From NCBI RefSeq assembly GCF_054482595.1, contig NZ_CM137008.1: a DNA stretch of 64,000 nucleotides; one strand, given 5' to 3'. Numbering within the stretch: the first letter of the stretch is position 1; every line of letters begins with the position of its first letter. The notes below the pieces were generated by a model. The model had not been told where the DNA came from. It saw only the letters and a list, made by a program, of their open reading frames with translations, and made no database searches. The translations under genes and the position numbers were made by a program. Below, in pieces: positions 51,438-51,949 of this stretch.

Positions 51438-51747
51438 AACAATTTCCCTTCATTGAATGAATGGAGATTTACCCAAAAACATTTCGGGCGGGATCGAGTA
51501 TACACAACTAAAGCATACGAATTACGGCGCGGGGAATTAGCGATGGCGTTTTAGGATAATTGGAATGAATATCAAATATAAGTTTCAACTTATATTTAAA
51601 TAACAATAAAAATCATAAACTTAAAATAAAAACAAAAGTAATTAATCTGCGTATTTTCCGAAATAAACAACGATTAAAAATCTATTTTAGGATTAACCTC
51701 ACGGTATGATTTCCGTTAAATCACAGACAAGGGGATTTATCTGATAA

Positions 51748-51776
51748 AACAATGCCGACATAACGTCGGCATTGTT
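51748..51776. terminator. 12-bp perfect palindrome; possible pgi terminator or protein-binding site
   Basis: AACAATGCCGAC-ATAAC-GTCGGCATTGTT; on the minus strand followed by UUAUCAGAUAAAUC. Confidence 0.4.
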
Positions 51777-51839
51777 ATTAAGGTTATTTAATCAATCGTG
51801 CTATGCATTAATTGCCGAATACGATGTACATATCGGCAT

Positions 51840-51945
51840 CGACCTGTAGGCCTGATAAGACGCGTAAAGCGTCGCATCAGGCACCAGTTGCCGGATGCGG
51901 CGTAAACGCCTTATCCGGCCTACATAGCGGCATCAGGCATGAACG
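51840..51945. repeat. REP/BIME cluster downstream of pgi
   Basis: GTAGGCCTGATAAGACGCG...GCCGGATGCGGCGTAAACGCCTTATCCGGCCTAC. Confidence 0.8.
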
Positions 51946-51949
51946 ATGA

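Follow-up and report, generated by a model that had tools for sequence, protein, structure and literature searches.

The pgi-yjbE intergenic region of Escherichia coli: REP cluster, pgi terminator and a predicted, helically phased control region beneath the STnc430 match

The 512-bp gap between pgi and yjbE in E. coli is probably an ordinary chain of elements, made up of a REP cluster, the terminator of pgi, upstream control DNA, a core promoter and a short 5' UTR. The palindrome within it is, in the gene sense, the intrinsic terminator of pgi, and the overlapping match to the Rfam antisense sRNA family STnc430 is most plausibly the footprint of conservation at two upstream boxes (boxes 1 and 2, described below) plus this terminator, which looks bidirectional. 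STnc430 is thus probably a false family with no real RNA behind it. The anatomy of the gap is largely known already; mildly new are only the phasing of several boxes and the probable status of STnc430 as no RNA gene.

Results

The pgi-yjbE gap and its orthologs

Within the window (the whole 64-kb stretch of DNA that was analysed), the gap runs from 51949 down to 51438, that is from the pgi stop codon to the ATG of yjbE, and its measured length of 512 bp bears out the roughly 500 bp of the original prediction. According to the ORF list and the translations, pgi and yjbE both lie on the minus strand, and yjbE is followed on the same strand by yjbF, yjbG and yjbH. The original prediction mentioned neither this minus-strand orientation nor the Rfam antisense sRNA family STnc430 that extends across the stretch. 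The flanking features are:

51950..53599, minus strand: pgi coding sequence (ORF translation, with a C-terminus 100% identical to K-12 Pgi; K-12 annotation)
51952..51950, minus strand: pgi stop codon
51195..51437, minus strand: yjbE coding sequence, first gene of yjbEFGH (ORF list, K-12 annotation)

For comparison, 57 further Enterobacteriaceae loci were fetched via YjbF, and about 50 of these retain the pgi-yjbE synteny, their gaps measuring 334-510 bp. The resulting alignment, A1, holds 53 loci from about 50 species-level genomes and is the basis of all counts given below out of 53. Strain XH990 is 100% identical to the query over the 512-bp gap. Small ORFs of 32-45 aa in the gap fall within non-conserved or REP sequence, and the conservation of a hairpin that straddles the stop codon of pgi (51947-51981) does not reach beyond Escherichia.

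The predicted core promoter and 5' UTR of yjbE

The most conserved block of the gap, TTGTGTATACTCGA, lies close to yjbE and contains the predicted -10 hexamer, downstream of which RNAalifold yields a consensus structure with two hairpins:

51494..51507, minus strand: invariant block TTGTGTATACTCGA (columns T449-C460 invariant in 53 sequences)
51502..51497, minus strand: predicted -10 hexamer TATACT, within the invariant block
51438..51490, minus strand: predicted yjbE 5' UTR, about 53 nt (RNAalifold consensus, 14 pairs)
51489..51471, minus strand: UTR hairpin 1, kept through CG/UG/UA and GC/GU changes
51469..51441, minus strand: UTR hairpin 2, its seven predicted pairs invariant across 52 sequences

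Neither a -35 element upstream of TATACT nor an extended -10 at it is recognisable, and the promoter is predicted to have the look of an activator-dependent one. Folded as a single sequence, the UTR has an unremarkable energy (-13.8 kcal/mol, z = -1.3), so the case for the hairpins rests on their conservation. Since the pairing of hairpin 1 is kept through sequence changes, it supports transcription of this stretch and a yjbE start site near 51490, corresponding to about 4235853 in K-12, which we use below as the predicted start; the Cappable-seq supplementary tables hold no entry at the yjbE start coordinates. In the RNAalifold consensus, hairpin 2 pairs UCUCCAUUCAUU with AAUGAAGGGA and covers the Shine-Dalgarno sequence GAAGGGA (51451..51445), and would on this model mask the ribosome-binding site and limit translation.

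A conserved RcsAB-box match and two half-site boxes upstream of yjbE

RcsAB boxes sit at exopolysaccharide promoters such as cps/wza, and the box was reportedly defined by Wehland and Bernhard in 2000. Its 14-bp consensus is TaAGaatatTCcta, with T1, A3, G4, T10 and C11 as conserved positions (PMC4325325), and yjbEFGH is listed as activated by RcsA-RcsB (PMC5651002, PMC5461412). The upstream DNA of yjbE holds the following predicted sites:

51688..51701, minus strand: box 1, RcsAB-box match TGAGGTTAATCCTA (yjbE sense TGAGnTTAATCCTAAAA), centre at about -205 from the predicted start
51648..51661, plus strand: box 2, inverted box copy, TGCGTATTTTCCGA on the plus strand (TCGGAAAATACGCA in the yjbE sense), an RcsB-type half-site TC(C/T)NA followed by AAA
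51552..51565, minus strand: box 3, TTCCAATTATCCTA, right half-site only, centre at about -68 from the predicted start

The search for an RcsB box that the original prediction had proposed turned up an RcsAB-box match in 53/53 loci (box 1), whereas the strict RcsB-homodimer consensus TN(G/A)GAN4TC(T/C)NA has no match in the gap; box 1 deviates from it at position 5 only, and this position is never A in the 53 loci, leaving the homodimer consensus unmatched throughout. Box 1 agrees with the RcsAB consensus at 10 of 14 positions, among them all five conserved ones, and these five are present in all 53 loci; the information content reaches 2.0 bits at the positions T, A, G, T, T, C and AAA. The right half of box 1, TCCTA, is complementary to TAGGA, the RcsB half-site contained in the TTAGGAA of the RcsB-DNA crystal structure (PMC5829831). 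Elsewhere in the window the homodimer consensus has 3 matches versus 2.3 expected, and a relaxed RcsAB core pattern has 15 matches in the 64 kb versus 9.1 expected, which is not significant on one genome; the case for the motif relies on conservation across genera, single-genome statistics being uninformative here.

Two further boxes, of the TCCTAAAA half-site type, lie in the AT-rich tract between box 1 and the promoter. Box 2 retains T1, G4 and TC(C/T)NA-AAA across loci; the RcsAB box's left half is found in box 2 in 4/53 loci and in box 3 in 0/53. The 9-mer ATCCTAAAA occurs twice in the 64-kb window, both times in this gap. From these sequences we infer binding of RcsA-RcsB to box 1, and of RcsB or a partner to boxes 2 and 3. 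More loosely, the site of an osmotic-shock activator that has been reported at yjbJ and ybaY may follow this TC(C/T)(T/G)AA half-site logic too.

The distances between these sites vary in steps. Boxes 1 and 2 are separated by 51 bp in 42 loci, by 40 bp in 8 and by 50 bp in 3; boxes 2 and 3 by 96 +/-1 bp in most loci and otherwise by 83-84 or 74 bp; and box 3 stands 63 bp from the -10 in 40 loci and 51-52 bp from it in 9. The larger, independent spacing changes thus amount to about 11 or about 22 bp, near one or two helical turns. Such quantised spacing argues for a face-of-helix constraint between protein sites and is unlike what RNA or neutral spacer DNA would show.

The AT-rich tract and an IHF-like core

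The DNA between boxes 2 and 3 is set apart by its composition, and it carries one conserved core:

51566..51647, unstranded: AT-rich spacer between boxes 2 and 3, with a GC content of 0.13 in E. coli and 0.20 on average over 53 loci
51611..51623, plus strand: IHF-like core AATCATAAACTTA, matching 12 of the 13 positions of WATCARNNNNTTR

The run of very AT-rich sequence of about 150 bp noted in the original prediction is borne out, with 80-bp windows falling to a GC of 0.15-0.19 at 51560-51679 and 51551-51711 being the lowest-GC 161-bp stretch of the 64-kb window (0.211 versus a median of 0.522). The label of a leader, which the original prediction had given to this sequence, has to be dropped: the tract lies at about -60 to -230 from the predicted start, and the predicted 5' UTR measures only about 53 nt. 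Because the conserved hairpins and the invariant block put the predicted start near 51490, downstream of the tract, the latter is upstream promoter DNA and no transcribed leader if that start is correct.

The sequence of the spacer differs between genera, and its length and base composition are conserved. The core consensus of IHF is WATCARNNNNTTR, and the conserved core of the spacer, which reads A(A/T)(T/A)CA(A/G)NNNNTTA on the plus strand, fits it. Columns T341, G342, A334 and A335 of A1 are invariant or near-invariant here, and the conserved columns correspond to the C, the A and the TT of the IHF-like core. The strict IHF consensus is found at one aligned offset in 14 of the 53 loci, versus 0.66 loci expected to have it anywhere in the spacer. 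On the 64-kb window strict IHF matches number 14, none of them at 51611-51623, where the E. coli core is one base off. IHF or H-NS may shape the AT-rich spacer and so bring the distal boxes to the promoter. A sigma-54 promoter, brought to mind by the look of an enhancer plus IHF, was considered and rejected, as inspection by eye found no GG-N10-GC upstream of the invariant block.

The expectation in the original prediction that the gap harbours the control region of yjbEFGH is therefore supported by phylogenetic footprinting, at the level of predicted sites: box 1 in 53/53 loci, the half-sites, the IHF-like core and the phased spacing. We tentatively propose that the boxes and the IHF-like core could form a looped, helix-face-dependent complex able to activate or de-silence yjbEFGH from a position more than 200 bp upstream, with STnc430 as the footprint of this array plus the pgi terminator; this arrangement is a possibility to which we attach limited confidence.

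Binding of H-NS to the tract is plausible because of its composition and of a weak AA/TT periodicity at 11 bp, and the tract might thus mainly serve as a silencing platform for H-NS or other nucleoid proteins, with Rcs acting by counter-silencing, not by recruiting RNA polymerase directly, and the boxes acting as anti-silencer sites. We regard this as rather unlikely to be the tract's main role, albeit with several observations in its favour. The tract is the lowest-GC stretch of the whole window, its composition (mean GC 0.20) and length are kept despite sequence drift, the core promoter is without a -35, and RcsB heterodimers such as BglJ-RcsB are described, in work cited in PMC3950696, as relieving H-NS repression elsewhere. 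The tract also includes a bicyclomycin-responsive signal, whose Rho score is 2.8 (K-12 4235753, plus strand). On the other side, our literature search found no report of H-NS occupancy for the locus, and the periodicity is marginal (14/1000 shuffles at one of ten periods tested). Moreover, silencing is compatible with our main reading of the gap, in which the tract is upstream control DNA of yjbEFGH, and is no exclusive alternative to it. K-12 position 4235753 (+) corresponds to about 51590 of the window, and the Rho-termination method works at the coarse resolution of 800-nt windows; the signal may reflect backup termination of pgi read-through or a yjbE promoter induced by bicyclomycin.

The STnc430 match is probably explained by DNA-level conservation

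Boxes 1 and 2 and the palindrome all fall within the match to the antisense sRNA family:

51634..51783, plus strand: Rfam RF02053 (STnc430) match, 75.8 bits versus a gathering score of 47, full length (model positions 1-162)

The match uses the palindrome as its terminator, and of the 20 genera examined 17 have an STnc430 model match, of up to 164 bits, at the orthologous site. The candidate list from which the family stems is reportedly that of Pfeiffer 2007 or Sittka 2008. STnc430 was predicted computationally, as a class V candidate of the Salmonella pgi/yjbE gap, with 0 cDNA reads in both libraries and unprobed by Northern blot (PMC2515195 supplement).

Were 51634-51783 (+) a genuine sRNA, antisense to pgi/yjbE, transcribed from ATAACA-16-TAAAAT and ending at the palindrome, the breadth of the full-length match would fit, and candidate promoter and terminator signals might serve it. 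The region has a single sigma-70-like hit, ATAACA-16-TAAAAT, which stands at 51600-51627 (+), just upstream of the 5' end of the match; it scores 9/12, and one such hit compares with 2.6 expected in shuffles. On the antisense strand, a -10-like TAAAAT/TATAAT at a fixed distance of 21-22 nt from box 2 is among the top promoter candidates in about 20/53 loci. This hexamer overlaps the IHF-like core, and it degenerates in Kluyvera, Cedecea and Buttiauxella while the boxes persist. The antisense T-tract is good in Citrobacter and Salmonella, where both directions are, but poor in E. coli, Kluyvera and others. For E. coli K-12, the Term-seq data contain no 3' end at the six coordinate prefixes searched on the flanks of the hairpin (4235540-4235579, 4235610-4235629), and the K-12 annotation has no feature in the STnc430 region.

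At the level of structure, STnc430 was rejected as a structured RNA, the 46 sequences giving no consensus fold and the family's own helices no covariation. RNAalifold on the 46-sequence alignment in the STnc430 sense returned 0 pairs. Covariation over helices P1-P4 was 0.147 versus 0.140 in shuffles, with 135 of 500 shuffles as high, and helix pairs with double changes numbered 13 versus 13.4 in shuffles. Helices P1 and P3 are paired in 64% and 59%, respectively (46 sequences). In P2 the conserved pairs are invariant, and the single variable position (CCT/CTG versus AGG/CAG) changes independently on the two sides. E. coli has lost P3, the central hairpin, through an 11-bp deletion. The match thus exceeds the gathering score of the family and is without a covariation-supported structure. 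Because there are no pairs and no covariation, and because P3 is lost in E. coli, the conservation is better explained at the DNA level, and we consider a genuine sRNA at this place very unlikely. An antisense transcript may be made in species with a good two-way terminator, e.g. Citrobacter and Salmonella.

The palindrome is the terminator of pgi

The conserved DNA at the distal end of the STnc430 match belongs to the neighbouring gene:

51741..51776, minus strand: pgi intrinsic (Rho-independent) terminator, stem-loop 51776..51748 plus U-rich tail, potentially bidirectional

The perfect palindrome placed at 51748-51776 by the original prediction was recovered as an inverted repeat (I4) with arms of 12 nt (51748-51759 and 51765-51776) that are 100% complementary around a 5-nt loop. 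In the pgi sense its RNA has a folding energy of -18.8 kcal/mol (z = -6.0), and in the antisense direction one of -20.4 kcal/mol (z = -5.6). The minus-strand RNA reads AACAAUGCCGAC-GUUAU-GUCGGCAUUGUUUUAUCAG and continues into a U-rich tail, which is UUUUAU if counted after the extended 12-bp stem and UUGUUUUAU if counted after a 9-bp stem. An automated terminator scan raised no flag at the palindrome because it counts the tail beyond the maximal stem.

The length of the stem varies by allele. The K-12 allele, ...GTCGGCATTTTTTTATCAG, has a 9-bp stem followed by T7, and in this strain (...GTCGGCATTGTTTTATCAG) a T-to-G SNP lengthens the stem to 12 bp and interrupts the U-tract (UUGUUUU). Among 3854 E. 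coli genomes with a match to this stretch of 73 nt, 36 carry the exact allele of the window; the perfection of the 12 bp belongs to a rare allele and is no property of the locus. Across genera, a hairpin of at least 8 bp occupies the aligned position in 46/53 loci, and these 46 hairpins comprise at least nine distinct, mutually complementary stems, such as GCCGAC/GTCGGC, GCCGAT/ATCGGC, ACCGGC/GCCGGT and GCGCCAGC/GCTGGCGC. On the pgi side of the stem, 7-8 of the following 10 nt are T in nearly all loci; the A-tract before the stem, on the other side, has 2-8 A and is variable across loci. Kosakonia has a different hairpin directly after pgi instead of the palindrome.

The published K-12 Term-seq data place an RNA 3' end at 4235595 (+), with a score of 1163, inside the T-tract of the palindrome, and the sequence printed for this entry, ...AACAATGCCGACGTTATGTCGGCATTTTTTTATCAGATA, ends in ...GCCGACGTTATGTCGGCATTTTTTTATCAGATA (PMC7815308, supplementary file 1). 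The entry appears once only in the three-growth-condition file and concerns the K-12 allele, not that of this strain. A stem with a U-tract, an RNA 3' end in vivo (in K-12) and conservation of complementarity only are the marks of an intrinsic terminator, and the palindrome, in the gene sense, is that of pgi. The original prediction was right to allow for the pgi terminator as an equal reading of the palindrome, with the T-tract on the pgi side, and a pgi 3' end at the palindrome, which together with a missing regulatory-protein footprint it had named as speaking against a regulatory role, is what the K-12 data show. That the palindrome serves a dimeric yjbE regulator as its operator, as the perfect 12-bp dyad symmetry in this strain might suggest, is exceedingly improbable and essentially refuted, since the stem drifts in sequence while complementarity alone is kept (as expected of an RNA hairpin, not of a site bound by protein), a T-tract follows the stem on the pgi side in nearly all loci, an RNA 3' end maps into that tract, the perfection of the dyad is owed to a rare SNP and Kosakonia swaps the palindrome for another hairpin.

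REP elements between pgi and its terminator

The remainder of the gap, between the pgi stop codon and the terminator, is occupied by repeats:

51845..51945, unstranded: REP/BIME cluster of two to three inversely oriented REP units, adjoining pgi
51809..51840, unstranded: remnant of REP-like sequence, degenerate, that includes a small hairpin (GCCGAATA...ATATCGGC), Escherichia only

The REP cluster announced in the original prediction is present at 51845-51945, as seen from nested imperfect inverted repeats (I1, I6-I8), from a match to the REP-derived Rfam family naRNA4 (81.3 bits, 51849-51920) and from its copy number, the REP part of the query being found at a median of about 28 places per E. 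coli genome and at 160,005 places in total. The region is variable across genera (columns 1-190 of A1); in this form the cluster is Escherichia-specific, and other genera have different REPs or none. The neighbouring remnant forms direct repeats (D1/D3) with 71-72% identity to REP units, and in A1 it is confined to the window and E. whittamii.

Discussion

Read in the sense of the minus strand, the gap is probably organized as follows. The REP/BIME cluster comes straight after pgi, and pgi transcripts end at the palindrome, about 190-200 nt past the stop codon. There follow about 210 bp of upstream DNA, probably non-transcribed, with box 1, the inverted box 2, the AT-rich spacer with its IHF-like core, and box 3. 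Transcription of yjbEFGH would then start from an activator-dependent core promoter with the -10 TATACT and no -35, giving a 5' UTR of about 53 nt in which hairpin 2 would occlude the ribosome-binding site.

For biology at large these findings carry little weight, as they concern the terminator of a housekeeping gene, REP elements and the promoter region of an operon known to be Rcs-regulated. STnc430 deserves re-examination, however, because annotation pipelines may spread it across the Enterobacteriaceae, when it apparently reflects DNA-level conservation together with the terminator of a neighbouring gene. In addition, the footprint offers a testable map of the yjbEFGH control region, with its boxes, the phasing rule, a predicted start and a hairpin predicted to mask the ribosome-binding site; the regulation of yjbEFGH by Rcs, osmotic stress and RpoS appears, in the literature consulted, to be described at the genetic level only.

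Compared with known systems, the match to RF02053 shares the pgi/yjbE gap, the strand and the extent of the Salmonella STnc430 candidate and exceeds the gathering score, but E. coli is without the family's central hairpin and has no 3' end mapped at the searched coordinates. The repeats next to pgi resemble REP/BIME elements: they are imperfect palindromic units of about 35 bp, of the GCCGGATGCGGCG / GCCTGATGCGACGC type, arranged in inverted pairs, extragenic and multicopy. The naRNA4 match, in contrast to REP325, from which naRNA4 derives, marks merely another BIME copy and implies no link to a nucleoid-associated RNA function.

The palindrome resembles other Rho-independent terminators of E. 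coli in its GC-rich stem of 9-12 bp, its 5-nt loop, its U-tract and its mapped 3' end, and complementarity of the stem is kept through compensatory changes. It differs from them in that it lies about 174 nt past the stop codon, behind a REP cluster and not directly after the gene, and in that the U-tract of this strain is broken by a G (UUGUUUU). Terminators flanked by an upstream A-tract and a downstream T-tract are known as bidirectional; pgi and yjbE are co-directional, so that a second direction would act only on spurious or antisense transcription.

Box 1, finally, resembles known RcsAB boxes in that it lies upstream of an operon described in the literature as dependent on RcsA-RcsB and in that its right half is an RcsB half-site. 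It differs from them in that its position 5 is never A, in its predicted location unusually far upstream, at about -205, and in being joined by two half-site boxes, one of them inverted, with which it is helically phased.

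Box 1 upstream of yjbE

Alignment of 53 loci revealed that position 5 of box 1, the predicted RcsAB-box match upstream of yjbE, is occupied by G, C or T (window 51697) and by A in none (0/53). Since this position is never A, the RcsB-homodimer consensus TN(G/A)GAN4TC(T/C)NA is always violated, and box 1 indeed departs from it while preserving the RcsAB-box core in all 53 loci. The absence of A may constitute a heterodimer-specific signature.

Variation in the pgi-yjbE gap

In one E. coli strain an IS200C-family element lies within the gap between pgi and yjbE (match H13 to the gap query):

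NZ_CP073976.1 4327515-4328714: IS200C-family element, strain MB20

In four comparison loci (L019, L036, L042 and L056) insertions of ~2 kb separate pgi from the conserved yjbE upstream blocks, giving a gap of about 2 kb. Three Kosakonia-like loci (L034, L046 and L053) are devoid of the shared hairpin and carry another terminator-like hairpin, AAAGCGTCGCTTCGGCGACGCTTTTTTT, immediately 3' of pgi; box 1 is retained in them.

The pgi terminator itself harbours a SNP in its U-tract (window 51750, minus strand; G versus T in K-12), which changes U7 to UUGUUUU and lengthens the stem to 12 bp. This allele occurs in 36 of the 3854 E. coli genomes (those matching the stretch) and could alter the efficiency of pgi termination.

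A perfect inverted repeat, with a folding energy of about -16 kcal/mol, spans the pgi stop codon:

51947-51957 and 51971-51981: 11-bp arms TGATTAACCGC and GCGGTTAATCA

Beyond Escherichia this repeat is not conserved, and it is probably fortuitous.

On the opposite side of pgi from the yjbE gap, related loci exhibit lysine riboswitch (RF00168) matches at the lysC leader:

L032 126-346, L037 166-359, L039 217-414 and L047 1-151, minus strand of each locus: RF00168 matches
Window 54124-55473, plus strand: lysC

The same element is expected in the leader that precedes lysC in the window, at about 53800-54120.

Similarity to the yjbJ and ybaY upstream regions

TCTGA and TCCTA half-sites resembling the yjbE boxes are also found upstream of yjbJ, and this region was compared with the one upstream of K-12 ybaY:

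Window ~26855-26885, minus strand: yjbJ upstream region, GGTTAAAAATTCTGAATAAATAATCCTAAGCC (yjbJ ATG at 26771)
L059 ~1739-1758: K-12 ybaY upstream stretch

The two share GGTCTGAAT-type similarity at 13 of 20 positions, 7 of them consecutive. A putative osmotic-shock activator site has been described, with yjbE among the motif-scoring candidates (bioRxiv 10.1101/2025.05.13.653802). A tie between this site and RcsB-type half-sites is speculative. The yjbJ/ybaY sequence similarity is consistent with such an osmotic-shock activator site.
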